From assembly GCF_016841685.1 (NCBI RefSeq), contig NZ_JAENYR010000010.1, forward strand, positions 3,000 to 66,999: 64,000 nt of DNA, read 5' to 3'. Positions 3,173 to 40,364 of this stretch are shown in pieces. The notes beneath the pieces were generated by a model. That model worked only from the letters and a program-made list of their open reading frames with translations, was not told the origin of the DNA and made no database searches. This stretch comes from Thiohalomonas denitrificans (GTDB taxonomy: Bacteria > Pseudomonadota > Gammaproteobacteria > Thiohalomonadales > Thiohalomonadaceae). The translations under genes and the position numbers were made by a program. How positions within the stretch are numbered: position 1 is the stretch's first letter; each line of letters begins with the position of its first letter.

Positions 3173-3226
3173 TGGTTCGCAATCGAGCCTGGAGGGAAGC
3201 GCGCCAGCTATACTCGGAGTAAATCA

Positions 3227-3517
3227 GGGCAACCGCGTTTTGAAGCGAGTGATGCAAGTGCTTGATATCAGGTCGACGGAACACGACTGCATGGAAGCAG
3301 GAGGTAGAACAACGCACGCCGTCATGGAAGGCGGTGGTAGACAATGCATGGAGCATAGGGTCGGGTGACCCGTTGTCGAGAGATGCTGCCGTCGAGCCTA
3401 CAGGGATGAAGTGATGGCTCCTGCATCATCTTCACTTCCTACATCCCTGTAGGTCGTATCCACGGCAAGCCTGATATCCAGCAGTTGCATCCGCTCGCCA
3501 AGCACCAAGCTTGTGAG
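3227..3517 (+). repeat. Intergenic modular hairpin repeat, family A copy 1
   Basis: Ends GGGCAACCGC... and ...GCACCAAGCTTGTGAG; subterminal inverted repeats gcgagtgatgcaagtgcttgatatcagg / cctgatatccagcagttgcatccgctcgc; homologous segments recur at 18061, 31972, 36994, 53525 and 56359. Confidence 0.85.
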
Positions 3518-3561
3518 TATGTGTTCCCTACGGACTAAATGATTGGCGAAAGGAATCTTCC

Positions 3562-3693
3562 ATGACTATGGTAACGTTGCAGCCCATCGTGGCACTGCTC
3601 GCCGGTAGTTTGATATTGCTGATACCGCGGATGTTGAACTATATCGTTGCTGTATACCTCATCATCGTCGGTATTCTTGGTCTCATTCAGTAG
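3562..3693 (+). CDS. Small membrane protein, DUF3096-like (43 aa; not in the supplied ORF track)
   Basis: Hand translation gives MTMVTLQPIVALLAGSLILLIPRMLNYIVAVYLIIVGILGLIQ*, with AGGA upstream; LQPIVAL...PRxLNYIVAxYL matches my recollection of DUF3096. Confidence 0.8.
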   Translation: MTMVTLQPIVALLAGSLILLIPRMLNYIVAVYLIIVGILGLIQ

Positions 3694-3885
3694 CCGTCTG
3701 GCGAGAGGGCTCTCGGCCCGGGTTTACTCGGTAGGCTCCTGACATCGCCTGTTTCTCTCCGATGTTTTCGGACGGCTTCTTCATTCGGTACTGTTCATTG
3801 GCACTGGTAACTCCGGTGCTTCTTGCCATACTTTTCTGTCTGAAGGGCTGGTAGCACGCAACCCCGGACCGGAAAGCAGAGGCCT

Positions 3886-5715
3886 ATGGCAGGTATCGTG
3901 ATCAGTTACGACCCCAGCGGCCGTAACGGAGAAAATGTCCATACCGTTGCGGCAATGCTGCGTGGAATTGGTCGCCCTGATTGTGAGCCCGCTATTGCTA
4001 TCGAAGGCGAGGTGGTGTTGGCGTCCTGTGGCGGAAAATCGCCACTTTGGGATGCTTCACACAGCTGCTGTGTGCTGTTCGAGGGCGAACTGGTTGGTGA
4101 TGGCCACGATGCACCTGAACTCCGGATCCTGGAGCTCTACCGGGAACGGGGCGAGGGTTTTATAGAGGCCCTGAATGGCACTTTTGCCTCCGTCGTCTGG
4201 GACGCAAAATGCAAGCGACTGATGGTGGGCAATGACCGATTTGGACTCCATCCCCTCTACACGGCCATCGTGAATGGCCGTCATCTCTGGGCCTCTTCCC
4301 CCAAGGCGATGTTGGCCAACCCTGCATTCACGGTCCATCTCAACCCAGTCGGCTTGGCTGACTTTCTTGGGCTCAATCTGTTCCAGGCCGACGACACCCT
4401 GGTTCAGGGCGTGTCTGAAATCACCCCGGGAACCTTCGATGTCTGCGAGCCCCACGGTGTGCGAACGCTCCGCTATTGGGATTTCGTTCTTAGCGAAGAG
4501 GAGAATGGCCGATCCTCCCGGAGTTATGTGGAAGGCGCTGTTGACGTACTTCGAGCCAGTGCCGGCCGCAGGCAGGCGAACGAAGAAACCAGCGGTTTCC
4601 TGTTGAGCGGCGGGACCAGTTCCCGCGTGGCCCTCGGGGCACTTGATCGGGGTCGCCTGGTGGGATTGGCTTTCGGCGCCCCGAACAGTTCCGAGGCGGC
4701 CTTTGCCTGGCAGGTTGCGGAAACCGCCGGGATCCCCTTTCGTTTTCATGCCCTGGGGCCGGAGCGGCTAAAAACTGACGCTCCCGTGGGTATCGAACGC
4801 AGTCCGGAGCCGCTGAGCTGCATCCAGTTCGACGGGCTCGGTGCGTGGGGAACGGTCGATGCCGACTGCAAGGTTATCGTCACCGGGTGTGGTGGCGCCG
4901 CTGTGTTCGGGCAACCCGCCCGCCCGCGAGAGTGGGCAGGCGAGTTTACCGCCGAGCGCCATTTTGAGGCTTTGCGGGTTTTCAGCGATGAGGATTTGTC
5001 GCAACTGCTTCAGCCGGGATGGTACCGACAGATAGAGGGTGCAGCACTCCGTCGGTTTCGGGATGACCTCGCACGCTGCCCATCGCGCCACGGGATCCAC
5101 CGGCTGGACTACTGGGCGCTGCGCCAGTGGACCCGCCGCCTCGATAGCCGGTTGGCCCATCTCTTTCCTGAGGGGACACGGATACGACCCCTGTTTCTGG
5201 ACAACGAAGTGGTTGACTTTGCCCGTGCACTGCCCCCGTCGCTGCGCTGGGGCGAAAAATCCGTCTATCGACGCGCCCTGTTAAAGATCGCTCCCGAACT
5301 GGCCAGCCTGCCGGTGACGACCACAGGCGGTCTGCCGCTCTCCTACGGCCTGCGCAGGCTGCGATACCATCATCGCCTTGCTGCATGGGCCAAGAGATTC
5401 AGTCGTGCATCCGGAGGCATCCTGCTGCCTGCCAGCCGGCCTCTCAGTGCCGCACCCGATTATGCCTCCTGGTTGAGGCGGGATCTCCACGACTGGATGA
5501 CAAAACTGCTGCTGGAGCCACGGACACTCGACCGCGGTCTGTGGCGTCGGGAAGGGCTTCTCGCCCTGATTGCCGATTGTCTGAATGGCGGCGACCGGGC
5601 CCAACCTGCAGCCCGCAAGATCTTTACCCTGATCAGTCTCGAATTGTGGTGCCGCCGCTACTTTGATATCGCCGGAGAAGCGGTTCTGCCAAGCGACCAT
5701 TCCGCGGCCCGCTAG
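3886..5715 (+). CDS. Asparagine synthase-related (AsnB-like) protein with degenerate catalytic motifs
   Basis: Class II GATase-like N-domain (FEGEL, LNGTFA, NDRFGLHPLY) plus synthetase domain (LSGGTSS, PLFLDNEVV, LELWCRRY); starts MAGI rather than MCGI. Confidence 0.75.
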   Translation: MAGIVISYDPSGRNGENVHTVAAMLRGIGRPDCEPAIAIEGEVVLASCGGKSPLWDASHSCCVLFEGELVGDGHDAPELRILELYRERGEGFIEALNGTFASVVWDAKCKRLMVGNDRFGLHPLYTAIVNGRHLWASSPKAMLANPAFTVHLNPVGLADFLGLNLFQADDTLVQGVSEITPGTFDVCEPHGVRTLRYWDFVLSEEENGRSSRSYVEGAVDVLRASAGRRQANEETSGFLLSGGTSSRVALGALDRGRLVGLAFGAPNSSEAAFAWQVAETAGIPFRFHALGPERLKTDAPVGIERSPEPLSCIQFDGLGAWGTVDADCKVIVTGCGGAAVFGQPARPREWAGEFTAERHFEALRVFSDEDLSQLLQPGWYRQIEGAALRRFRDDLARCPSRHGIHRLDYWALRQWTRRLDSRLAHLFPEGTRIRPLFLDNEVVDFARALPPSLRWGEKSVYRRALLKIAPELASLPVTTTGGLPLSYGLRRLRYHHRLAAWAKRFSRASGGILLPASRPLSAAPDYASWLRRDLHDWMTKLLLEPRTLDRGLWRREGLLALIADCLNGGDRAQPAARKIFTLISLELWCRRYFDIAGEAVLPSDHSAAR

Positions 5716-5764
5716 CGGCTTTACTGCCCCTAGGCCATTAACCATTGTCCAATAATCGACAGTC

Positions 5765-6022
5765 TTAAGGCTTGTCCGGCAGGGTAACGTTCAGCTCCAG
5801 CACCTCATAGTCCCCCTCCTGCTCGAGGTGGACCTGGACTTGTTCCTGGTCGACGGGGATGTACTTGCGGATCACTTCCAATACCTCCCGCTGCATGGCC
5901 GGGAGAAACTCATAGCGACTGTTGCGTTCGCCCCGCTGATGGGCGATCACGACCTGCAGCCGCTCTTTGGCCAGCTTGGCACTGCTGGGTTTCGTTTCGC
6001 GAAAGTAGCTGATTAGACTCAT
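5765..6022 (-). CDS. minE: Cell division topological specificity factor MinE
   Basis: SAKLAKERLQVVIAHQR, LPAMQREVLEVIRKY and LELNVTLP motifs. Confidence 0.97.
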   Translation of the reverse strand: MSLISYFRETKPSSAKLAKERLQVVIAHQRGERNSRYEFLPAMQREVLEVIRKYIPVDQEQVQVHLEQEGDYEVLELNVTLPDKP

Positions 6023-6030
6023 TATTCACC

Positions 6031-6840
6031 TCACCCGAATAGCCGTTTCAACAGGCCCTTGGGTACCGCTTCAACGAAGCGAAGCGGCACCTGTTCACCG
6101 AGGAAACGGGCGACGACGTCGGAATAGGCCTGTCCCGCCGGGTCCTTTTCATCAAGGATCACCGGCTGACCGGCATTGGAGGCCTGTAGTACACTCTCCG
6201 ATTCGGGAATCACGCCCAGCAGTCCGATCCCGACCAACTCGACGATATCGTCCACGCTCAGCATGTCGCCGTCGGAAACCCGTGCCGGCGCATAGCGCGT
6301 GATCAAAAGATGCTCCTTGACCGGCTCATCCCCTTGCTCCGCCCGGCGTGATTTGCTCGCAATGATGCCGAGCATCCGATCGGAGTCACGTACCGAGGAG
6401 ACTTCCGGGTTGGTGACCACGACGGCCTCATCAGCATAGTACATGGCCATTTGGGCACCACTTTCGATGCCGGCCGGCGAGTCGCAGACGATGTACTCGA
6501 AATCGGCCGCCTTCAGTTCGTCGATGACCTGGCCGACGCCCTCACGGGTGAGGGCGTCTTTGTCCCGTGTCTGGGAGGCGGGCAGAATGTAGAGCCCCTC
6601 AACACGCCGATCCTTAATCAGTGTTTGATTGAGGTTGGCCTCGCCCTGGACCAGGTTGATGAAGTCGTATACCACGCGCCGTTCGCAACCCATGATCAGA
6701 TCCAGGTTGCGCAGGCCCACGTCGAAGTCGATCACGACCGTCTTGTGACCCCGCAGGGCCAAACCGGTAGCGAACGCGGCACTGGTGGTGGTTTTGCCTA
6801 CACCGCCCTTGCCGGAGGTCATAACGATTACTCTGTTCAA
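6031..6840 (-). CDS. minD: Septum site-determining ATPase MinD
   Basis: TSGKGGVGKTT, DFDVGLRNLD, DSPAGIE and C-terminal amphipathic GLLKRLFG; probable TTG start at 6840 gives 269 aa. Confidence 0.97.
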   Translation of the reverse strand: MNRVIVMTSGKGGVGKTTTSAAFATGLALRGHKTVVIDFDVGLRNLDLIMGCERRVVYDFINLVQGEANLNQTLIKDRRVEGLYILPASQTRDKDALTREGVGQVIDELKAADFEYIVCDSPAGIESGAQMAMYYADEAVVVTNPEVSSVRDSDRMLGIIASKSRRAEQGDEPVKEHLLITRYAPARVSDGDMLSVDDIVELVGIGLLGVIPESESVLQASNAGQPVILDEKDPAGQAYSDVVARFLGEQVPLRFVEAVPKGLLKRLFG

Positions 6841-6980: not shown

Positions 6981-7661
6981 TTACACGGTCTCGATGCGCA
7001 ACTGCTCGCCATCAAGATGGATGTAGGCCGGCCCACCGCGTTGGCCGGCCTCCGGCTCCTCCAAGGTTCGGTAATGTCCTGCCACGGAGACCAGTTCGGC
7101 ATGAAGTACGGCGCAGGAGATGGTGGCCGTATCATCCCCCAGGATTCCCGCCAGCGCACGGCCCCGGAGCGGCGCGTGGACGTAGATAGAACCGCCCGCC
7201 AACACCTCCGCGCCGGCACTGACCGGAGCCAGCAGAATCAGATCGCCGAGGGTATGGATCTGCTGTCCCGAGCGGACCGGCTGGCTGACGACGCGCACCG
7301 GAGTGCGGTCGGATTCCGGTTTGGGAGCCTCTTCAACCGCCCTTTCTCGCTGCCCGCCCAATAGTTTCCAGCCGGCAGTCTGTGCCGCCTCTGCCTGCGT
7401 CGGCCCGGCATTGCTGATTCCGGCCGGGATGATACCGGCTTCGCGCAGCGCGGCATCCAGCGCCACGAAGTCGGGCAGCGCCTCTGTCTCCTGCAGGGGT
7501 GCCAGATCCAGCGCCACCAGCGCTCCCTGAAACATGCCCGGGGCCTGGGTGACGGTCTCTTCCAAAGCCCGGCGGAAGCTTTCGACATCGGTGTCGCACA
7601 GCAGCAGTCGCTGCATCAGCTGCATGCCGGCGCGGAGCTCAAAGGGGCGGGGTTCACTCAT
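6981..7661 (-). CDS. minC: Septum site-determining protein MinC
   Basis: PVRSGQQI, VSAGAEVLAGGSIYVHAPLRGRALAG and AELVSVAG motifs; upstream of minDE. Confidence 0.93.
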   Translation of the reverse strand: MSEPRPFELRAGMQLMQRLLLCDTDVESFRRALEETVTQAPGMFQGALVALDLAPLQETEALPDFVALDAALREAGIIPAGISNAGPTQAEAAQTAGWKLLGGQRERAVEEAPKPESDRTPVRVVSQPVRSGQQIHTLGDLILLAPVSAGAEVLAGGSIYVHAPLRGRALAGILGDDTATISCAVLHAELVSVAGHYRTLEEPEAGQRGGPAYIHLDGEQLRIETV

Positions 7662-8097
7662 AGTTCGCTAATGTCGCTTCGAAACCAATCCGACCATTAT
7701 ACCGGCCCGAGATACCCATGTGGGAACAGCGATTGTATCGCAATCGACGGAGGGCACCATGCAGAATAGCCACAATCGGAGTACCGATTGCTCATGGGAA
7801 AGAGGGGGGCGAGCTGAAGAGAAACCGGAAGGACGGGACACGTGACGCCTCTGGTTTCCGGGGTCAGAGGATACCGTACGATCTCGCCAACCTGATTTAG
7901 CCGGATATCAGCAAGAGCCGTGTAAGCGATAGGGAAGTGATCACCATAACATACCCGGGCGTTTATCCCCTGAATAATGAGAGGCGTGCGGCATGTCTCG
8001 AACGTCGTCAGGCAAGCTATCTTCCGCCTGTGCTAGCTGGAAGTCCCCTGCTGCGATTTGTATGGAAAACAGTCACATAACAGAAGAACCCGACTAG

Positions 8098-8297
8098 GAG
8101 CTTGTCCGAGAATAGCGACCGTCACGAGGGCAAGACGGATTGAGTGGGATTTTTCGGTCATTGGAGACGAATACGACTGCATGGACGCAGTCGTTAGAGC
8201 GACGCATGCCGCCATGGATGGCGGTAGTAGAGAGTGTCTGGAACCTATTCTCGATGATGCCCGAGCCGAGTAGGTCAGCCTATTCTCGGACAGGCTC
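8098..8297. mobile_element. 200-bp MITE with IS5-like ends and CTAG target duplication
   Basis: 18-bp terminal inverted repeats GAGCTTGTCCGAGAATAG / CTATTCTCGGACAGGCTC (17/18 match), flanked by CTAG at 8094-8097 and 8298-8301; no transposase. Confidence 0.75.
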
Positions 8298-8338
8298 CTA
8301 GAGAGGTTTGCCTGTGCTAAAAGCGATCAAAAATTCCT

Positions 8339-8363
8339 GGAACTTTTATGTCTGTAGTGCGTT
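8339..8363 (+). promoter_or_regulatory. Putative autoregulatory ECF-sigma promoter (GGAAC-N16-CGTT)
   Basis: GGAAC at 8339-8343, 16-nt spacer, CGTT at 8360-8363, immediately ahead of the ECF gene; same motif at 10267. Confidence 0.6.
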
Positions 8364-9008
8364 ATGACAATAAATGATTACGGAGTACGGCTAAAGGTGT
8401 CTGTTTTATCGATCGCCCCGATCCTGAGCGGCCTGGGCAGGTCCAAACGGAGGGATTTTCGCGAACTTCGGGACGAAGAGTGCGCCGAAAGGTCGGGGGC
8501 CGGGGATAACGACGCTTTCGCCGAACTCGTGCGACGCTATCAGAACCGCGTCTTTCGTTACCTGAAACGGATGGTTGGTTCCGAGGAGGAGGCCCGTGAC
8601 CTTACCCAGGAGACCTTTTTGCGAGTCTACAAAGCGCTGCCGAAATGGAATGAACAGGCCCTGTTCCGATCCTGGTTGTTTCGAATCGCGAGCAATGCTG
8701 CGATCGATGAATTACGCCGCCGCCAGGACCATCGGCCGCTGTCACTCAATGGCCTCGACGAACCGGTGTCACAACAACCGACCGTTGAACACATCCACTA
8801 CGCTGAAGAACGCTATCTGTTTCTTGAGAAAGCACTCATCCGAATATCAGAGATTTACCGCCAGCCCCTGCTTTTGCGAGAGCTTGAGGGGATGACCTAC
8901 TCGGAGATAGGCAAGTTGTTGGATTTGACCGAAGGTACTGTAAAATCTCGCATTGCCCGCGCACGTGCGAAGCTGTGTGAACTATTCCGAAACTGCGGAT
9001 ATTGTTGA
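8364..9008 (+). CDS. ECF-family RNA polymerase sigma-70 factor
   Basis: Region 2 (GDNDAFAELVRRYQ, DLTQETFLRVY, FRSWLFRIASN) and region 4.2 (TYSEIGKLLDLTEGTVKSRIARAR); true start may be downstream, e.g. GTG 8397. Confidence 0.93.
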   Translation: MTINDYGVRLKVSVLSIAPILSGLGRSKRRDFRELRDEECAERSGAGDNDAFAELVRRYQNRVFRYLKRMVGSEEEARDLTQETFLRVYKALPKWNEQALFRSWLFRIASNAAIDELRRRQDHRPLSLNGLDEPVSQQPTVEHIHYAEERYLFLEKALIRISEIYRQPLLLRELEGMTYSEIGKLLDLTEGTVKSRIARARAKLCELFRNCGYC

Positions 9009-9011
9009 AAG

Positions 9012-9455
9012 ATGGATTTTTGCCCAAAAATAGAGATGCTTTCCGCATACGTCGACGGGGAGCTATCTTCAGCCGCAATGTTCGCGTTGGATGAACACGT
9101 GGCCAACTGCGCCCGCTGTCGGGAGACGGTTTCCGCGATCCACCTGCTTGGTTCGGCAGTTAACGAGGATGGCGCGCCGCCGGTGGATTTGGTACCGGAA
9201 ATCATGGAACGGATTAAATGCGAGCGAGATGTTGTTGAAGTGATGGGGATGGGCTGGCGTCGATGGAGCCCGATTTCCTTGTCTGCGGCAGCCGGGATCA
9301 TGCTGGCGATTGGGGTACTACTCGGCCATGGTGTTTTTTACCATTCGGCATCTTCGACCGATCCACTAGTTGGCAGAATGTGGGCCTTTGATCTGATTCC
9401 GCCTGGCGGAGTGTGCATTCACAACAACGCTTGCTTCGGGGTGCGCGCCAAATGA
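9012..9455 (+). CDS. Zinc-binding anti-sigma factor (zf-HC2) with one TM helix
   Basis: LSAYVDGEL...HVANCARC (HxxxCxxC), hydrophobic segment SLSAAAGIMLAIGVLLG; 3 bp after the sigma stop. Confidence 0.88.
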   Translation: MDFCPKIEMLSAYVDGELSSAAMFALDEHVANCARCRETVSAIHLLGSAVNEDGAPPVDLVPEIMERIKCERDVVEVMGMGWRRWSPISLSAAAGIMLAIGVLLGHGVFYHSASSTDPLVGRMWAFDLIPPGGVCIHNNACFGVRAK

Positions 9456-9934
9456 AACGATATTGCCTGCCAACTCTGCTGATCCTTTCGCTGGCCTTGA
9501 ATGCTGGTGTTCTGGGCATGGGTGGTATCTATCTGGCCGAAAGCTGGCTCGGTCCCAAGCCGGCCCAGGGGCACACCATGCTTGTTCACTATCTTGAGTT
9601 GGACGGAGAGCAGCGCCTGATCTGGCAGGAGAAGGAAAAAGGCTTTATGGACGACCTGACCAGTGCTTGGCAACAGATCCATGGTCATCGCGAAAAAATG
9701 ATACGTGAGATATTTTCCGATTCGCCGGATCAGGAGTTGATCGAAATCCAGCGCGCGGCCATATCTCAAGTCCAGGAGCAGCAGCAAAACTACGTGATTG
9801 CGCAGATGATGGCCGAGAGGGAAATACTCGATGCGCAGCAGCGTCAGAAATTGGCTGATCTTCTGATTCAGCAAAACCCGATAGGTTCCCTCGAAGAAGT
9901 CCTCGCCGACGAGCTCCATCACCCCGACCACTGA
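9452..9934 (+). CDS. Periplasmic Spy/CpxP/CnrX-like helical sensor (heavy-metal sensor family)
   Basis: N-terminal anchor LLILSLALNAGVLG, repeated LDxxQR helices, His-rich tail DELHHPDH; ATGA overlap with the anti-sigma. Confidence 0.75.
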   Translation: MKRYCLPTLLILSLALNAGVLGMGGIYLAESWLGPKPAQGHTMLVHYLELDGEQRLIWQEKEKGFMDDLTSAWQQIHGHREKMIREIFSDSPDQELIEIQRAAISQVQEQQQNYVIAQMMAEREILDAQQRQKLADLLIQQNPIGSLEEVLADELHHPDH

Positions 9935-10172
9935 ACCGGTGCGGTAGGGTGCCGGCCCGGCCGCATCCTTGTACTGTGTTGAATCGAAGCCCCGGACCGT
10001 GACCGTTTGGTAAGTAATATTGATACTGGGCTTCTATTGGCTCGCGTTGAAAAACTCTATCGTCTGCGAATTTCGAATTAAAAACTCCCTCATCTTTTAA
10101 AGCTGGCAAGAAATGGCGGAACTCGGTTCTTGCCTTCGCGTTAAAACTCTTTTTTATGTTTTTATCATTTTA

Positions 10173-10188
10173 TTATATTGAAATATAA
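10173..10188. promoter_or_regulatory. Palindromic operator candidate TTATATT-N2-AATATAA (copy 1)
   Basis: TTATATTGAAATATAA; same arms at 34096-34111. Confidence 0.5.
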
Positions 10189-10266
10189 CTAATTAATCTT
10201 TTTATTTTATGATACTTCCGGGTAGTATTCTATTAGCTGGACAATCACGATTTTTATGAAATAAAA

Positions 10267-10291
10267 GGAACCTTCGCCCTGCATGCTCGTT
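10267..10291 (+). promoter_or_regulatory. Putative ECF-dependent promoter of the porin-cyt c'-sox cluster (GGAAC-N16-CGTT)
   Basis: GGAAC at 10267-10271, 16-nt spacer, CGTT at 10288-10291; about 100 bp upstream of the porin ATG. Confidence 0.6.
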
Positions 10292-10392
10292 TATCATAAA
10301 GATTGCGACATTTATCTAGCGTCTGATAATGACCGAGCACGCGTTTTGTGATTAACACAAGACGTGATTATTGCAAAAGGGGGGGAGGACGG

Positions 10393-11835
10393 ATGTGGAA
10401 TAAAAGTGTGCTCGCTTTGGCGGGTGGAGTGCTGTCCATGTTTTCAGTAAACGCCCATGCGGCGAACTGGATAATGATACAGGGAACTGAGCCACCAAAT
10501 TCTGAACCACGCTTCTTTGGTGCGGCTGCGTTGACCTATTCAAATTACCTGGGGTGTGATCGATTGTCCGGTATGGCCGCGCCGGACGGTACCGCGGATG
10601 GGAACCTGAACGCGGGTCCCGGGCTGAATAACGGCTACTACGTAAACAACTGTCGTGTCGGTCCGGAGCTCGAAAACAGGAATAGCGGGGTCAATTTGAA
10701 TGCCCTCGTTTTGGGATCTCGGGGACCGATCACGGATAAAACCAATTACTTTATTACTACCCAGTTCGGTTCCAATGCGGCGACCTACTTACCGATGAAT
10801 ACCGATCGTGAAAGAATCGGGACTCTTACCGATGCCAGTGTTACGTTTAACCACATCCCACGGGCTCGGCTGAAAGCGGGGCTTTTCAAGAAGCCCGGGC
10901 CGGAAGAGCTTATGCAGTCGCTCAAGAATCACAATTTCATCTACTTGACCGACTTCACGAGACGCGATCAGATCGAGCGCTTCGTCACCGGTAACGCTAA
11001 GGGCACACGACCGATTCCGGATCAGGGGACGCCTGTTACTGAAGCCTACGATGCCGACGTCGGGCGGGACTGGGGCGTTCAGCTTTTTGATGCATTCCGT
11101 ATTGCCGACTGGCAGCACACGTATGCGGTAATGGCCGGAAACGGCAATGGAATTCATCATGACGATAACAATAGTGAAAAGGATTTGAATCTATACTGGT
11201 CATCGGAAAAGGACCTTCCTGGCGGTAAAGGGCCGTATAGGCATGGAGTCAAGTTCTATGGCTATCATCAAAAAGGCATACGCAACTTCATCAAGGACGA
11301 CGGAACTTACAGCGAAAATTTTGATCGCATCAGGTACGGCGTGGGTATGAAAGCGTTGGGAAAGCTCGGCGGATACAAGCAGAGATTCGCGGTTGATCTG
11401 ATGTATGCGGACGGCATGGTACTACAATCCGCCGTGACTAGTTGCACTGACTGTCCGTACGGTGGCCAGATACAGATTGCGGCGGAAGAGGGCAACAAGG
11501 CGCGTGGGACCACGATCGATTACGGGTTCTACCTGAATAAGAAGTGGCAGTTCGACGCACGCTGGTCACGTAATAATCTGCTTTATGAGACTGCGGATAA
11601 CACGAAATGGAGTCCCTCGGATGAACGCGTCATTACCGAGTTTGCCATCGGTACCAATTATCACATCAGCCCCAAGACGCGTGTGACCCTGAACTATGTG
11701 TTTCGGGATTCGGAGGCACCCAATGCCGTGCAACATCCCGACCCGAACATAGCTGCGGTGAAGACTCAGAACGCCGAGAACGCCACATCGACGGTCGGTG
11801 ATGTGCTTGGGCTCCGGATAATGCACTTCTTTTGA
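10393..11835 (+). CDS. Outer-membrane beta-barrel / porin (OprO/P-like, uncharacterised)
   Basis: Signal peptide ending AHA, alternating beta-strand pattern, many Tyr/Phe/Trp/Asn, terminal Phe (MHFF); GGAGG RBS before ATG 10393. Confidence 0.7.
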   Translation: MWNKSVLALAGGVLSMFSVNAHAANWIMIQGTEPPNSEPRFFGAAALTYSNYLGCDRLSGMAAPDGTADGNLNAGPGLNNGYYVNNCRVGPELENRNSGVNLNALVLGSRGPITDKTNYFITTQFGSNAATYLPMNTDRERIGTLTDASVTFNHIPRARLKAGLFKKPGPEELMQSLKNHNFIYLTDFTRRDQIERFVTGNAKGTRPIPDQGTPVTEAYDADVGRDWGVQLFDAFRIADWQHTYAVMAGNGNGIHHDDNNSEKDLNLYWSSEKDLPGGKGPYRHGVKFYGYHQKGIRNFIKDDGTYSENFDRIRYGVGMKALGKLGGYKQRFAVDLMYADGMVLQSAVTSCTDCPYGGQIQIAAEEGNKARGTTIDYGFYLNKKWQFDARWSRNNLLYETADNTKWSPSDERVITEFAIGTNYHISPKTRVTLNYVFRDSEAPNAVQHPDPNIAAVKTQNAENATSTVGDVLGLRIMHFF

Positions 11836-11901
11836 TAGATAACCATGGAGGGACAGTTCGGATGTCTTCTCCGACAGCAGGTGGTTTTAGATTCCCGGTA
11901 C

Positions 11902-12058
11902 GTAACTGCTCGCCCGGTTGATCATGCGGGGCATAGGAGATTCGTCATCCCCGCGCAGGCGAACCGTCATCCCCGCGCAGGCGGGGATCCATTTTGAGCC
12001 ATGCCGCTGCTCTCTGGATTCCCGCCTCCGCGGGAATGACGGGGGAGTGAGCAGTTAC
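11902..12058 (+). mobile_element. 157-bp MITE family B copy 1, carrying a nested REP-like palindrome
   Basis: TIR GTAACTGCTC/GAGCAGTTAC; perfect 8-bp flanking direct repeat CCCGGTAC (11894-11901, 12059-12066); 155/157 identical to 40373-40529. Confidence 0.85.
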
Positions 12059-12203
12059 CCCGGTACAAATAAATGGAAGAGGTGCATCAAGCGATCGCAC
12101 TGCACGATAGGTCACCGGGCGCTCACAAAACAGTAGCCAGGGAGCGTCCGGTTTCGGAGGGATTGTAATTGCTTTCAAATGATGAAAAGAGAAGAGGTAT
12201 GAA

Positions 12204-12695
12204 ATGCGTATAAACGGAAAACTGGTCGGGATTTGTTTGATGGGTGCGGTCGGGGTTGGCGCCATTACGGCCTGGGCAGCCGGTGGAGAGCCAGTACCGA
12301 ATCAACTAAAAGACCCCGACCAGAGGATCGTTCTGCAATTGCCGCCGGATGAGCGTCATATGGTGCTGGAGGAGATGCGGAACTTTGTCGTGGCGATCCA
12401 GGAAATTGCCGATGGATTGGCCCGTGATGATTTCGAACAGGTGGCGACGGCGGCGCGCACCATGGGAAGTGGTGCTGCCAACGAGATACCTCCTCGCGTT
12501 GTGAACAAACTTCCGGAAACGTTCAAGCAGCTCGCTGGCAAGGTTCATACTACTTACGATGCGATCGCGTTGGATGCGGGAAGCATGGCCGATACCCAGT
12601 TGGCGCTGGAACAGCTTGGGGACTTATACGGATATTGTGTGGCGTGCCACGCCACCTATCAGATCGAAAAAATCCCGTTTCCTGATGAAAAATAA
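12204..12695 (+). CDS. Periplasmic class II (c'-type) cytochrome c
   Basis: Signal peptide, all-helical body, single C-terminal CVACH heme motif. Confidence 0.8.
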   Translation: MRINGKLVGICLMGAVGVGAITAWAAGGEPVPNQLKDPDQRIVLQLPPDERHMVLEEMRNFVVAIQEIADGLARDDFEQVATAARTMGSGAANEIPPRVVNKLPETFKQLAGKVHTTYDAIALDAGSMADTQLALEQLGDLYGYCVACHATYQIEKIPFPDEK

Positions 12696-12760
12696 CAAAC
12701 ACCGGAGATGGGCCAGGAATCGGCAGAACTGGTTACTAGCATCATGACAGGAGCAAAAAT

Positions 12761-13237
12761 ATGACGATGAACATAAAGCGCAGGACCTTGCTCAAGGGTT
12801 CTTTTGCGGGCGCTACGATGGCGATTGCCGCTGGTGCTGGATTGTTGAAGCCAAGCCGGGTATTGGCGGTTTGGCCGGAAAAAGTCTTCAAGGCAGAGAA
12901 TGTGGAGGGTTTTCTGCAGGACATCTATGGCAATACCAGCCTTCAGGCTAGTGAAGACATTCAAATCCAGGTGCCGGAGATTGCAGAAAACGGCGCTGTT
13001 GTGCCGGTGACAGTCACTACCGGTATAGCGAATGTACAGAGCATTGGACTTGCGGTCGTCAACAACACGAACCCGCTCGCGGCGGTATTTCATATGTCCG
13101 ACAACGCAGACGGTTATGTGTCCACGCGCCTGAAAATGGCCGGAACTTCTGATGTGCTGGCAACGGTGAAGGTGGGAAATGAAACCTTCTTTGCCCGCAA
13201 GGAGGTCAAGGTCACGATCGGTGGTTGTGGCGGCTGA
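12761..13237 (+). CDS. soxY: Thiosulfate oxidation carrier protein SoxY (copy 1)
   Basis: Tat signal RRTLLK, AENGAVVPV, C-terminal KVTIGGCGG. Confidence 0.97.
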   Translation: MTMNIKRRTLLKGSFAGATMAIAAGAGLLKPSRVLAVWPEKVFKAENVEGFLQDIYGNTSLQASEDIQIQVPEIAENGAVVPVTVTTGIANVQSIGLAVVNNTNPLAAVFHMSDNADGYVSTRLKMAGTSDVLATVKVGNETFFARKEVKVTIGGCGG

Positions 13238-13278
13238 ACGATCAGCCAATCAGAACGCAAGAACAGGAGTAAACAGAA

Positions 13279-13593
13279 ATGGCTGGCAGCATCATGATTC
13301 GAGCCAATAAGAAAGGCGAGCTGACTACGGTCAAGGCCTTGATCAAGCACCCGATGGAGACAGGCCTGCGCAAGGACAAGAAGAGCGGGAAGAAAATCCC
13401 GGCCCACTTTATCCAGGAAGTCAGTTGCAAGCATGCCGGTAAAGAGGTGATGAGTGCACAATGGGGCGCCTCCGTATCGAAGAATCCGTACTTCACCTTT
13501 CGTTTCCGCGGCGCAGATAAGGGCGATCGCGTAACGCTGACCTGGGTTGATAACCAGGGCGGCAGCGAGTCCAAGGAAACCGAGGTCGCCTGA
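13279..13593 (+). CDS. soxZ: Thiosulfate oxidation carrier complex protein SoxZ (copy 1)
   Basis: HPMETGLRKD, PAHFIQ, VSKNPY and WVDNQG motifs. Confidence 0.97.
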   Translation: MAGSIMIRANKKGELTTVKALIKHPMETGLRKDKKSGKKIPAHFIQEVSCKHAGKEVMSAQWGASVSKNPYFTFRFRGADKGDRVTLTWVDNQGGSESKETEVA

Positions 13594-13761
13594 TCGTGAG
13601 TCACTGCGCGGGCCGGGGCAGGCCTGCGCAGTTCACCTTGCCTGCAAGTCACGTTTCCGGGCAGGGCGCGGGTGCTGATCCTTTCTGTCAGTGCAAGCCG
13701 AAGTCTCAGGTCTTTGGTTGACGCGTCGCCCTATCGGCAGGGACTGAGTTTTTTTTCTTGC

Positions 13762-13893
13762 GAGCCGTACCCCCTGCTGCGCAGGCTCGAATCAGTGAAG
13801 AGCTGTAACCACGGGGTACACGGGGACCACGGGGTAAAACAGGTTGTTCGAGTTTTTTCTCCCCGTGCGCCCCGTGTTCCCTGTGGTTCGAAA
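13762..13893. repeat. Composite intergenic repeat (gattcg-gcctgcgcagcagggg module plus ACCACGGGG inverted repeat)
   Basis: Module is the reverse complement of 45452-45486; ACCACGGGGTACACGGGG...CCCCGTGTTCCCTGTGGT inverted pair also seen at 45517-45716. Confidence 0.65.
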
Positions 13894-13984
13894 TTCAAGG
13901 GGTGAATCGCGAAATTATTCACGAGGAATGCAGTCATTCTTGACTCTTCGATAATAGCCATAAAAAACCAGGAGGATGGGGGAT

Positions 13985-14452
13985 ATGTCAATCAGACGCG
14001 TTGTGAGTTTTTTGTTGCCTGTGTGCGTCATGCTGACGGTCAGTGCACAGGTGACGGCGGAACAGAAGGAGAAGGTGGCAAAGCCTTCGGAGTTCCCATG
14101 TTTGAGTTACACGGCACCTTGCGGAAAAATCGGTGTGCGGCCGGTCGTGAAAAAGATGCCGCAAGACCTCTCTTTGGGTGATCCGGAAAGGGGGAAACAA
14201 ATCGCCTTCAAACGGAAAAAGGGCAACTGCCTGGCGTGTCACCGAATGAATGGCGGGTCGCAGTCAGGCACGCGAGGTCCCGATTTGAGCCGCTACGGCT
14301 CGTCGGGCCGAACTGCTGCCGAAATATACGCAATGGTATATGACAACCGCTGGCAGTTTCCGGACACCGTTATGCCGCCATTTGGAACGAATGAGGTCCT
14401 GACCGATCGCGAAATCCGTGATGTTGCTGCTTTCCTGCGGGCATCGCGTTAA
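13985..14452 (+). CDS. soxX: SoxX c-type cytochrome (copy 1)
   Basis: GDPERGK...KGNCLACH...GPDL...MPPFG motifs; extra N-terminal Cys pair CLSYTAPC; start chosen by spacing from GGAGG. Confidence 0.92.
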   Translation: MSIRRVVSFLLPVCVMLTVSAQVTAEQKEKVAKPSEFPCLSYTAPCGKIGVRPVVKKMPQDLSLGDPERGKQIAFKRKKGNCLACHRMNGGSQSGTRGPDLSRYGSSGRTAAEIYAMVYDNRWQFPDTVMPPFGTNEVLTDREIRDVAAFLRASR

Positions 14453-14459
14453 GAGGTGC

Positions 14460-15356
14460 ATGATGAAACCGAAAGCCATGTTCGTTGCACTCGCTGGTAT
14501 CTTTGCTGCCTCCGCCTGGGCCGTTGAAACCGAGGATAGGTATCCGCGTACTCCAATCGTCCCGGAGCAGGGAGTTTGGGGAGATCAGGGGTTCTCCAAT
14601 ACGATTCAATATTGGGGTAGCAAAGAGGCCTTGAATAAAAATGCTTCTCTGCAAGATGACCCGGACAATGTCTGGAAACTGAACCATAAACACAAGGATG
14701 GTGATCGGGTCGATATGCACCCGGGGCACATCGGGGTGGAAGAGGGTCGCGAAATGGTGGACTCGTGGAGCAGCAAGAAACCGGAGTTTCTCAAGTGTTT
14801 GTCGGAGGGTAAAGGATCACTGCAAGGACTTGCTGCAAACTATCCGAAATATGATGAGAAGCTCGATCGGATAATGACGGTCGAGGCCCGCATCGAACAC
14901 TGCTCGCAGACCCATTTGCCGAAGCAGATCAAACAGGGCTCGCCAGCCAATACCACTAGCGCCCTCTACGTGAAATCGCTAAGCGCAGGTAAACCGATTC
15001 AGGTTGACCTTTCGTCGGCTCCTGTAGAGCAGGCGTACCAGCGTGGCGAAAAGCTCTTTTACAAACGTATTGGTCAGCTCAATTTCGCCTGTGCATCCTG
15101 CCATACTCCGGGAAGTGTGATGGGACACAAGTTGCGCGGCGAAGTCCCTACGACCCCATTCGGTGATGTGGCGCACTATCCGACCTATCGGACGCCAGTA
15201 GGGGAGTTGGAGCCGTTGCACCTGCGCTTTGTGCGTTGCCACAAACAGATGCGCGCAAAGCCGCTGCCGCCGGGCGATCCGGCTTATACGGACCTCGAAG
15301 TGTTCTTGTCCGTCTTGTCGAATGATTACCCGATTTCGGTTCCTTCATTGCGGTGA
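14460..15356 (+). CDS. soxA: SoxA monoheme c-type cytochrome (copy 1)
   Basis: RIGQLNFACASCH, HYPTYR, RFVRCHKQMRA (axial Cys); first heme site reduced to a Cys pair (FLKCL/IEHCS). Confidence 0.93.
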   Translation: MMKPKAMFVALAGIFAASAWAVETEDRYPRTPIVPEQGVWGDQGFSNTIQYWGSKEALNKNASLQDDPDNVWKLNHKHKDGDRVDMHPGHIGVEEGREMVDSWSSKKPEFLKCLSEGKGSLQGLAANYPKYDEKLDRIMTVEARIEHCSQTHLPKQIKQGSPANTTSALYVKSLSAGKPIQVDLSSAPVEQAYQRGEKLFYKRIGQLNFACASCHTPGSVMGHKLRGEVPTTPFGDVAHYPTYRTPVGELEPLHLRFVRCHKQMRAKPLPPGDPAYTDLEVFLSVLSNDYPISVPSLR

Positions 15357-39261: not shown

Positions 39262-40364
39262 TGTCCGAATTTACGATCGACGACTACCGCTACATGGCCC
39301 GGGCGCTAAAGCTTGCCGAACGCGGGCTTTGTACCACCGACCCCAACCCCCGGGTCGGCTGTGTGCTGGTGCGGGATGGCAAAGTAGTTGGTGAAGGGTG
39401 GCATGCGATTGCCGGAGGGCCCCATGCCGAAGTCGTGGCACTCCGGAACGCAGGCGAAGCCGCGCGGGGCGCCACCGCCTATGTGACGCTGGAACCCTGC
39501 AGTCACCATGGAAAGACAGCTCCCTGCAGCGATGCGGTCATCGAAGCGGGCGTATCCCGCCTGGTGGCTGCAATGCAGGACCCGAACCCGAAAGTGGCCG
39601 GCGAAGGGCTTGCAAGACTGCGCGAGCAAGATGTCGAGGTGGCTGTCGGTCTGATGAAGTCACAGGCCGAGGCGCTGAATCCCGGTTTCGTTATGCGTAT
39701 GCGCAGCGGTCGCCCCTTCGTGCGTAGTAAACTGGCGATGAGCCTGGACGGGCGTACCGCCATGGCCTCGGGCGAAAGCCTCTGGATCACCGGTGAGGCC
39801 GCCCGCAGGGATGTTCACCGGCTCCGCGCCCGCAGTTCCGCCATTGTTTCCGGCATCGGAACGGTGCTCTCCGACGATCCTTCCCTGAACGTCCGCCTGG
39901 AAGGGCAGGAGCGGCAGCCGCTGCGGGTCGTACTTGACCCCCGTCTCTCGATGCCGGAGACGGCAAAGATGCTGACTCTGCCCGGGAAAACGCTGGTAGC
40001 AACCGCAGCCAGCCCCGACGATGCGTGGGAGCGCCTGGAGTCCAAAGGGGCCGAAGTGGTCTCACTCCCTGACGGACCCGATCGGATCGATCTCCACGCC
40101 ATGCTTCACCTGCTTGCCGAACGGGAGGTCAATGAGATTCTGCTGGAGACCGGAGCCATTCTGAGCGGTGCGATGCTCAGGGCGGGACTTATCGATGAGT
40201 TGGTCGTTTATATGGCGCCCCGCCTGATGGGGGACAGCGCCCGTGGCCTGTTTAGGTTGCCGGGGCTGGAAGCGATGGCAGACACCCTCGACCTCGAAAT
40301 CGACGATATTCGGGCGGTGGGTCGGGACTGGCGGATCACCGCCCGGCCTATCGCCAAAACTTAA
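39261..40364 (+). CDS. ribD: Riboflavin biosynthesis deaminase/reductase
   Basis: PNPRVG, HAE, TLEPCSH, SLDGRTA motifs. Confidence 0.97.
   Translation: MSEFTIDDYRYMARALKLAERGLCTTDPNPRVGCVLVRDGKVVGEGWHAIAGGPHAEVVALRNAGEAARGATAYVTLEPCSHHGKTAPCSDAVIEAGVSRLVAAMQDPNPKVAGEGLARLREQDVEVAVGLMKSQAEALNPGFVMRMRSGRPFVRSKLAMSLDGRTAMASGESLWITGEAARRDVHRLRARSSAIVSGIGTVLSDDPSLNVRLEGQERQPLRVVLDPRLSMPETAKMLTLPGKTLVATAASPDDAWERLESKGAEVVSLPDGPDRIDLHAMLHLLAEREVNEILLETGAILSGAMLRAGLIDELVVYMAPRLMGDSARGLFRLPGLEAMADTLDLEIDDIRAVGRDWRITARPIAKT

Follow-up and report, generated by a model that had tools for sequence, protein, structure and literature searches.

In Escherichia coli, the extracytoplasmic function (ECF) sigma factor sigmaE (ECF02) activates its own operon, which also encodes a single-pass anti-sigma factor (RseA, which binds the sigma factor through a cytoplasmic domain) and a periplasmic third component (RseB), from a promoter with the -35 element GGAAC. 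Promoters of the RpoE type have the -10 element TCTGA/TCAAA, and GGAAC -35 and CGT-type -10 elements are common to many ECF groups. Autoregulation is common among ECF sigma factors, which need near-consensus promoters (PMC7776599). In group ECF281 of the ECF classification 2.0, the sigma gene is accompanied by a zinc-finger anti-sigma factor gene at position +1 and a gene for a PF13801 'heavy-metal resistance' protein at +2 (Casas-Pastor et al. 2021, PMC7826278). ECF281 is a computationally defined group whose 'heavy-metal stress' label was derived from the gene neighbourhood alone (PMC7826278). Our literature search found no characterized member of ECF281 and no paper beyond PMC7826278 that mentions the group. 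Here we describe a sigma module of this gene order in a stretch of 64,000 nucleotides of Thiohalomonas denitrificans (contig NZ_JAENYR010000010.1, positions 3,000 to 66,999; hereafter the window), together with two sites of the form GGAAC-N16-CGTT, one in front of the sigma gene and the other in front of a porin gene that is followed by sox genes. Judging from their sequence and its conservation, the two sites are very probably the cognate promoters of this sigma factor, which would feed its own operon and the porin(-sox) operon.

Several regulators of sox genes have been described. In Arcobacter butzleri, the ECF sigma factors sigma2 (AB1044) and sigma7 (AB2301) affect sox genes, as determined using microarray, reverse transcription-polymerase chain reaction (RT-PCR) and enzyme assays, and thus provide an experimental precedent for ECF sigma control of sox (PMC3445524). 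However, A. butzleri is an epsilonproteobacterium, its two sigma factors are encoded away from the sox cluster, the regulation is described as partly indirect and the word 'promoter' is absent from the main text (PMC3445524). SoxR and sHdrR are described as ArsR-type repressors that sense sulfane sulfur (PMC12423496), and TTHA1953 of Thermus is a CsoR-type sox regulator (PMC10318464). These regulators serve the same purpose, namely to turn on thiosulfate oxidation genes when needed; however, they are cytoplasmic one-component repressors, whereas the system in the window would be a sigma/anti-sigma pair with periplasmic input. The literature search found no link between an ECF sigma or anti-sigma factor and adjacent sox genes, in Thiobacillus or elsewhere. 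Neither sulfur nor sox is mentioned in a paper that predicts ECF regulons on a large scale, although its data may hold such a link implicitly.

GGAAC-N16-CGTT sites in the window and in related loci

The sites and the genes around them are as follows (nt, nucleotides).

8339 to 8363, + strand: predicted autoregulatory ECF promoter of the sigma operon (-35 GGAAC(TTTT), N16, -10 CGTT)
8397 to 9008, + strand: ECF sigma factor gene, 203 amino acids (start GTG 8397; GGAG at 8382-8385, 11 nt upstream of GTG)
9012 to 9455, + strand: anti-sigma factor gene (zf-HC2, PF13490, 1.2e-9; weak RseA_N match, 7.8e-5)
9452 to 9934, + strand: gene for a membrane-anchored periplasmic helical protein of PF13801 (Metal_resist, CpxP/Spy-like LTXXQ; Pfam 3.3e-19)
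10118 to 10142, + strand: third exact match to the core GGAAC-N16-CGTT, with a low family-matrix score (a weak promoter, the relic of one or a match by chance)
10267 to 10291, + strand: predicted ECF target promoter of the porin(-sox) operon (-35 GGAAC(CTT), N16, -10 CGTT(TA))
10393 to 11835, + strand: gene for an outer-membrane beta-barrel porin, 480 amino acids with a signal peptide (ATG 10393 after GGAGGA; OprP/OprO-related)

The two sites on the + strand consist of GGAAC at 8339-8343 with CGTT at 8360-8363 and of GGAAC at 10267-10271 with CGTT at 10288-10291; the spacer is 16 nt in each case, and the spacer sequences are unrelated. This agrees with an earlier, sequence-only reading of the locus, which had reported the pair with equal spacing and differing spacers and had taken it for an autoregulatory and a target promoter. 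A pattern search of both strands of the window detected three matches to GGAAC-N16-CGTT, the third of which (10118-10142), 149 nt upstream of the 10267 site, that reading had missed. All three are intergenic and oriented toward downstream genes. Dinucleotide shuffles contained 0.61 +/- 0.69 matches per window, and three matches were reached in 0 of 100 shuffles. We further built a family weight matrix of 28 positions from 29 sites of other loci, with the window sites excluded, which gave the extended consensus GGAAC(T/A)TTT...T(T/C)CGTT(T/G)A. With this matrix, the sites at 10267 (20.7 bits) and 8339 (16.1 bits) ranked first and second in the window on both strands. An A-rich tract precedes the -35 element of the 10267 site. 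Two other matrix matches were rejected, both within the shuffle maxima (up to 19) and with no supporting context: one at 6097 (-; TGAAC-N16-CGTT, 15.5 bits), in the coding region of minD, which is probably a chance match, and one at 40184 (+; 13.2 bits).

The sites recur in relatives of the sigma module. A single-sequence contig scan with the sigma protein found only distant relatives (identity of 45% or less) and no orthologous context. An alignment-based genome scan found approximately 20 beta- and gammaproteobacterial loci (sigma identity 38-50%), and the module of sigma, zf-HC2 and PF13801 genes was present in every scanned locus that was checked. Of the 23 loci examined, 19 had GGAAC-N16-CGT immediately before the sigma gene, and 16 had a second copy approximately 1.45-1.57 kb downstream, directly after the PF13801 gene. 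Approximately 25 relatives (sigma identity 44-82%) carried one motif ahead of the sigma gene and another past the three-gene module, as the motif check in orthologous clusters that had been proposed from the sequence anticipated; equivalent sigma-upstream sites were found among L020, L021, L023-L043, L103, L105, L107-L110 and L112-L117. In 26 related loci (314 kb), the exact pattern occurred 49 times, compared with approximately 2.3 occurrences expected from base composition. Forty-seven of these 49 matches preceded either the sigma gene or the gene that comes first after the module, a count for which seven sigma-upstream sites and two porin promoters were reassigned from the automatic bin 'other'. 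In the orthologues, the GGAAC-like -35 and CGT-like -10 elements upstream of the sigma operon are conserved at the distance expected of an ECF-type promoter (16-17 nt), which points to autoregulation.

With only nine bases specified in the core, and with ECF-like cores arising randomly, both occurrences might be chance matches that lack promoter function. Against this, however, stand the shuffle counts and the top matrix ranks of the two sites, as well as the conservation of their position across lineages in which the upstream regions are otherwise unalignable, except for the -35 element, the -10 element and an A-tract before the -35. The comparative data effectively refute a chance origin, which we regard as exceedingly improbable.

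In Thiobacillus, Hydrogenophilaceae, Sedimenticola, a lineage from a JGI metagenome and the window's own lineage, the second site precedes an orthologous porin gene with sox genes behind it. In L103 (Thiobacillus), L105 (Sedimenticola-like) and L107 (JGI metagenome), the module adjoins a porin orthologue (53-63% identical), followed by soxX, soxA, soxY, soxZ and the gene for a CxxCH protein, and the distances from the motif to the porin start are 114 nt, 76 nt and 127 nt, respectively. The porin-sox and sigma operons diverge in the Sedimenticola type, with a separate site for each of the two. Scanning genomes with the porin yielded 21 further loci. The module was present within 7 kb in 10 of them, including T. 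denitrificans (Thiobacillus) DSM 12475 and S. selenatireducens DSM 17993, and all 10 possessed both sites. By contrast, the site was found in none of the 11 porin loci without the module (Rhodocyclaceae and others). Thus, a site 76-206 nt upstream of the porin match was present in 15/15 loci with an adjacent module and in 0/11 without one. A matrix for which only loci lacking sox genes served as the training set gave the same division: the best score within 450 nt upstream of the porin was 18-29 bits in 14 module loci and 9.6 bits in one (spacer 17), compared with at most 1.2 bits in all 11 loci without the module.

In non-sulfur-oxidizing relatives, the gene after the second site encodes a small His-rich periplasmic protein or a DUF6448 protein. 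The operons of Thiobacillus and L107 end with the His-rich protein that is the sole target in the non-sulfur-oxidizers, which suggests that the sox genes were recruited into an older regulon. The His-rich protein (HHHHDHG...LQLNAGKKWATD), which belongs to no Pfam family, is encoded at 14424-14912 in L103 and 11098-11502 in L107, as well as in L110 and L112-L116, and its gene alone follows the second promoter in L037, L039, L041, L043 and L078; the protein is not encoded in the window. A DUF6448 gene follows the second promoter in L024 (7638-8273). Another lies directly upstream of the porin gene in L111 (6500-6946), beside a different, unrelated ECF sigma gene, which hints at a functional tie between DUF6448 and the sigma regulon.

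The loci L118-L128 (Rhodocyclaceae and others) carry a porin-soxXAYZ-cytochrome cassette with neither the ECF module nor the motif. In L121 (Rhodocyclaceae; 3195-6188), the single locus of this set in which upstream genes were examined, a HAMP histidine kinase and a Tll0287-like protein are encoded upstream of the cassette. The same cassette thus appears to be wired to different sensors in different lineages, a kinase in L121 and the ECF module elsewhere.

Whether the third match at 10118 is also a functional promoter, either in tandem with the 10267 site for the porin operon or as a relic of the promoter of a lost gene, was judged from its own features. It is an exact core on the same strand, is intergenic and is retained in L022, a second assembly of the same population. 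Further, L020 (sigma 68% identical), whose gene order is that of the window, possesses three motifs, before the sigma gene, before an extra gene for a 198-amino-acid CxxCH protein and before the porin gene; the interval that corresponds to 10118 thus holds a real-looking promoter with its gene, and the 10118 match may be a relic of such a pair. However, it scored 7.3 bits with the weight matrix, and approximately 8.6 matches of that strength are expected by chance per window. It has neither the T-rich extension after GGAAC nor the T before CGTT, its -35 lies within the loop of a local 8-bp hairpin (GGCAAGAA/TTCTTGCC) and no open reading frame follows it in the next 125 nt. Folding of 9930-10175 detected no significant structure (z = -0.48). 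We therefore consider promoter function of the 10118 match unlikely. The approximately 125 nt between it and the 10267 promoter (10140-10265) have a GC content of approximately 20%; this tract could be a deletion scar, an UP-like tract or a site for a nucleoid protein.

From the two predicted promoters, transcription of the sigma operon would start at approximately 8369-8372 (about 8370) and that of the porin operon at approximately 10297-10300 (about 10298), with a leader of roughly 95 nt in the latter. A sigma-70-like match (TTGCGA-16-GATAAT, 10303-10330) lies just 3' of the ECF -10 element of the porin promoter and could give basal porin expression; such sites are rarer than chance in this sequence (2 vs 4.0).

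The sigma factor, its anti-sigma factor and the PF13801 protein

The -10 element of the first site (CGTT, 8360-8363) abuts ATG 8364, at which the open reading frame of the sigma gene begins when it is delimited mechanically. This ATG lies within or just after the -10 element, so that a transcript from the 8339 promoter could not use it as a start codon. The sequence-only reading had placed the real start downstream of ATG 8364, and the relatives locate it at GTG 8397. The four closest homologues of the sigma factor (P0002-P0005; 82, 68, 61 and 58% identity) are all 203 amino acids long, which is the length from GTG 8397, and share the N-terminus M-S/T-x-L-S-I-A. Further, L021 (sigma 82% identical) has no counterpart of ATG 8364 and keeps both the GTG and the motif. 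These comparisons support translation from GTG 8397, not from ATG 8364.

The protein contains Sigma70_r2 (PF04542, 1e-21) and Sigma70_r4_2 (PF08281, 6.6e-16), also matches PF07638 (2e-9) and scores 114.8 bits against TIGR02937 (cutoff 42.9). With regions 2 and 4 only and a length of approximately 200 amino acids, it is an ECF (group 4) sigma-70 factor. The anti-sigma gene starts 4 nt past the sigma stop and holds the same position in all relatives, as expected for a cognate anti-sigma factor. Its zinc-finger motif H-x3-C-x2-C (HVANCARC) is conserved in the alignment, which points to a zinc-binding anti-sigma (ZAS) domain. The protein is predicted to have a cytoplasmic zinc finger, one membrane helix and a periplasmic part of only approximately 35 residues. 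In this tail (approximately 9340-9452), PPG(G/A)xC-x5-C(Y/F) is conserved family-wide: the last Cys occurs in all 19 aligned orthologues and the first in 16 of them. The first tail Cys is missing in Sedimenticola and L020. The start of the PF13801 gene overlaps the anti-sigma stop (ATGA), and this gene is third in the module in every relative checked.

The gene order in the window and in all relatives is that of ECF281, a match made here by gene context. The ECF281 paper is silent on a porin-soxXAYZ target (PMC7826278), which is the predicted target operon here and in three other lineages. The module also resembles sigmaE-RseA-RseB in that an apparently autoregulated ECF sigma factor, a single-pass anti-sigma factor (with a weak RseA_N match here) and a periplasmic third component are encoded in one operon with a GGAAC -35 element. 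However, it differs from sigmaE in the -10 element, which is CGTT (CGTT(T/G)A) and not TCTGA/TCAAA, in the anti-sigma factor, with its zinc-finger motif and short periplasmic part, and in the third protein, which is CpxP/Spy-like (PF13801) and not RseB. Against the RpoE equivalog TIGR02939, the sigma factor scored 101.9 bits (cutoff 236.15). With an equivalog score below the cutoff, a different -10 element and no RseB, this system is not RpoE.

Porin, sox genes and operon extent

The porin itself has no Pfam match, and several of its homologues (40-53% identity) carry PF07396 (Porin_O_P). Its AlphaFold model, built with database homologues, is a beta-barrel with a predicted local distance difference test score (pLDDT) of 89.7. 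When the model was compared with the PDB using Foldseek, the best match was OprP (2o4v; E 3e-11; template modelling (TM) score 0.47/0.54), and OprO was third; a profile of five porin orthologues matched no PDB sequence. The confident barrel model, the structural matches and the PF07396 homologues together justify the name 'porin'. The protein thus appears to share the predicted barrel fold of OprP and OprO, the phosphate and pyrophosphate porins of Pseudomonas (PF07396); however, identity to these is only 11-12%, with TM scores of 0.47-0.54, and a Pfam match is lacking in the window protein. Anion specificity is only suggested by the model, and thiosulfate or another sulfur oxyanion as its substrate is a guess from context. 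The porin is 53-77% identical to the first gene product of the sox clusters in L020, L103, L105 and L107.

The following features lie downstream of the porin gene.

11902 to 12058, no strand assigned: REP (repetitive extragenic palindromic)-like hairpins, repeated three times in both orientations (GTCATCCCCGCGCAGGCG...; seen in the sequence and as direct repeat D1)
12204 to 12695, + strand: gene for a periplasmic protein that has a CxxCH haem motif at its C-terminus and weakly matches cytochrome c' (Cytochrom_C_2, 7e-5, under the curated cutoff)
12761 to 13237, + strand: soxY (TIGR04488, 2e-44, above the curated cutoff)
13279 to 13593, + strand: soxZ (TIGR04490, 1.6e-42, above the curated cutoff)
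13976 to 14452, + strand: soxX (TIGR04485, 7e-24, above the curated cutoff)
14418 to 15356, + strand: soxA (TIGR04484, 1.5e-50, above the curated cutoff)

The equivalog matches identify SoxY, SoxZ, SoxX and SoxA. The CxxCH protein is encoded in every porin-sox cluster examined, with orthologues 55-66% identical in L020, L103, L105 and L107 and matches in L108-L128. No soxB is among the annotated genes of 10393-15356 (porin to soxA), the only part of the window in which it was looked for.

The points that weigh against the assignments made above concern the sigma factor that reads the sites, the reach of the porin transcript and the RNA data. First, because GGAAC and CGT-type elements are shared by many ECF groups, another ECF sigma factor of the same genome might recognize the sites, and our motif scan covered the window of this genome. 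The motif could then be read mainly by a different sigma factor, for example an RpoE-type factor for envelope stress, and its adjacency to the sigma gene would be incidental. This is improbable, however: the site before the porin tracks the adjacent module (15/15 vs 0/11), the site recurs upstream of the sigma gene across relatives, and both the CGTT(T/G)A -10 element and the TIGR02939 score are unlike those of the RpoE type.

Second, the 10267 promoter may drive the porin gene only, with the sox genes at 12204-15356 transcribed from promoters of their own and their tie to the sigma factor indirect or lost. The gap between the porin gene and the next gene is 368 nt and contains the GC-rich REP-like hairpins, which could attenuate read-through from the porin, and a further gap of 382 nt separates soxZ from soxX; the sox genes may therefore have further promoters. 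Moreover, the order here is porin, cytochrome, soxYZ and soxXA, as opposed to porin-soxXAYZ in other lineages. On the other side, the gaps between porin and sox genes in other lineages are 10-175 nt on a shared strand, including 101 nt in the closest orthologue, L020, and sox genes follow the porin in 25 of the 26 porin loci, with only L127 lacking a sox match. Further, neither the sigma operon nor the porin gene is followed by a canonical terminator according to a simple scan, and no weight-matrix site was found upstream of 12204 or 13976. We regard a promoter restricted to the porin as possible, although it is not the reading that we favour, which is that the 10267 promoter also feeds the sox genes; read-through from porin to sox would occur here as the tight operons of other lineages suggest. 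The earlier statement that the site directly ties the sigma factor to the sox1 cluster thus holds insofar as the site before porin-sox recurs with the module in relatives; 'directly' was an overstatement for this organism, in which the REP-like repeat and the 368-nt gap part the porin gene from the first gene of the sox cluster.

Third, we compared the predictions with RNA data. The window DNA comes from a landfill metagenome, and the RNA data were three sediment metatranscriptomes as well as RNA assemblies and raw runs of Thiobacillus denitrificans (L112). The sediment metatranscriptomes contained a few short, low-depth contigs of 100% identity inside the sigma operon and the porin gene, with none over the promoters and none between 9974 and 10396, so that the start sites given above are predictions for this genome. 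In three RNA assemblies of Thiobacillus denitrificans, the contig of the sigma operon ended at L112 positions 6819, 6858 and 6875, respectively; the porin contig began at 6928/6929 in two assemblies, and the next contig of the third began at 7052. The predicted porin start in L112 (approximately 6852) lies in or at the edge of this gap, which is consistent with the prediction and not decisive, and the contigs, which carry no strand information and are of low depth, fit any start between approximately 6820 and 6928. In the raw run X37, the sigma operon was covered approximately 30-fold and continuously with the upstream gene, and the porin gene at most 2-fold; this continuity indicates that the sigma gene in that sample does not require the ECF promoter for basal expression. 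The pattern fits basal read-through expression of a sigma factor that is held inactive. In this shallow run, peaks of read beginnings occurred only at L112 5566/5567 and 10860, with none near the predicted starts of this locus (approximately 4830 and 6852), and the raw runs X34-X36 contained almost no matching reads. Thirteen reads of X37 matched L112 up to position 4781, 19 nt upstream of the sigma -35 at 4800, and continued into unrelated sequence (TGATGAACGGATGACAGCGC...), which suggests a strain difference or a rearrangement upstream of the promoter in that sample.

In the window, the sigma gene is preceded by minC and minD on the opposite strand, as well as parE, and parC directly follows soxA. 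The ParC protein is 93% identical to that of an uncultured gammaproteobacterial metagenome-assembled genome (MAG) and approximately 80% identical to those of Thiohalomonadaceae MAGs. In the former (L129), similarity to the window begins only approximately 80 nt upstream of parC, and soxA is absent from that position; the sigma-porin-sox segment that minCD and parC flank (8339-15356) thus resembles a variable island. One further feature lies beside it.

8080 to 8315, no strand assigned: repeat resembling a miniature inverted-repeat transposable element (MITE), with terminal inverted repeats of 36 nt (inverted repeat I1, 81% complementary)

This repeat ends 24 nt upstream of the sigma -35 and is context only, outside the regulon. 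Its metagenome depth was 750-1200x, compared with 25x in the flanks (30-50 times), which indicates that it is multi-copy; the depth of the REP-like element reached 6600x, compared with 25x. Joints in the assembly graph link the two elements (8301 to 11902; 8279 to 12042, on opposite strands).

Proposed signal and implications for sulfur oxidizers

Taken together, the observations fit a sigma factor that is made together with its membrane-spanning zinc-finger anti-sigma factor and the CpxP/Spy-like protein. At rest, the anti-sigma factor would hold the sigma factor, by analogy with anti-sigma factors of class I. A periplasmic signal, acting through the Cys-containing tail of the anti-sigma factor and/or the PF13801 protein, would release it. 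The free sigma factor would then direct RNA polymerase to its own operon, thereby generating positive feedback, and would also fire the promoter before the OprP-like porin gene, which is the first gene of a porin-soxXAYZ-cytochrome operon in related genomes.

Metals and reduced sulfur species are both compatible with the parts of the module as the signal. We tentatively propose, as one possibility among these, that in sulfur oxidizers the module may sense reduced sulfur compounds in the periplasm (thiosulfate, polysulfide or sulfane sulfur) through the Cys tail of the anti-sigma factor and induce the anion porin and SoxXAYZ.

An autoregulated ECF sigma factor with a nearby target promoter is a well-known kind of system. 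The content of this regulon, an OprP-like porin with sox genes, recurs in four lineages of sulfur oxidizers and appears to be undescribed. Control of sox in sulfur-oxidizing Beta- and Gammaproteobacteria such as Thiobacillus and Sedimenticola, which include obligate and facultative sulfur oxidizers, is poorly known, and the regulators that have been described come from other phyla or classes and are cytoplasmic repressors. The ECF module is a cis-linked candidate regulator of sox with defined promoter elements and a predicted first gene, the OprP-like porin, which could be an entry route for sulfur oxyanions through the outer membrane. It also provides a first physiological lead for an uncharacterized ECF group that was assigned to metal stress by neighbourhood alone. 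If the sulfur-sensing proposal is true, the module would serve Thiobacillus, Sedimenticola and relatives of the Thiohalomonadaceae as an extracytoplasmic regulator dedicated to chemolithotrophic sulfur oxidation.

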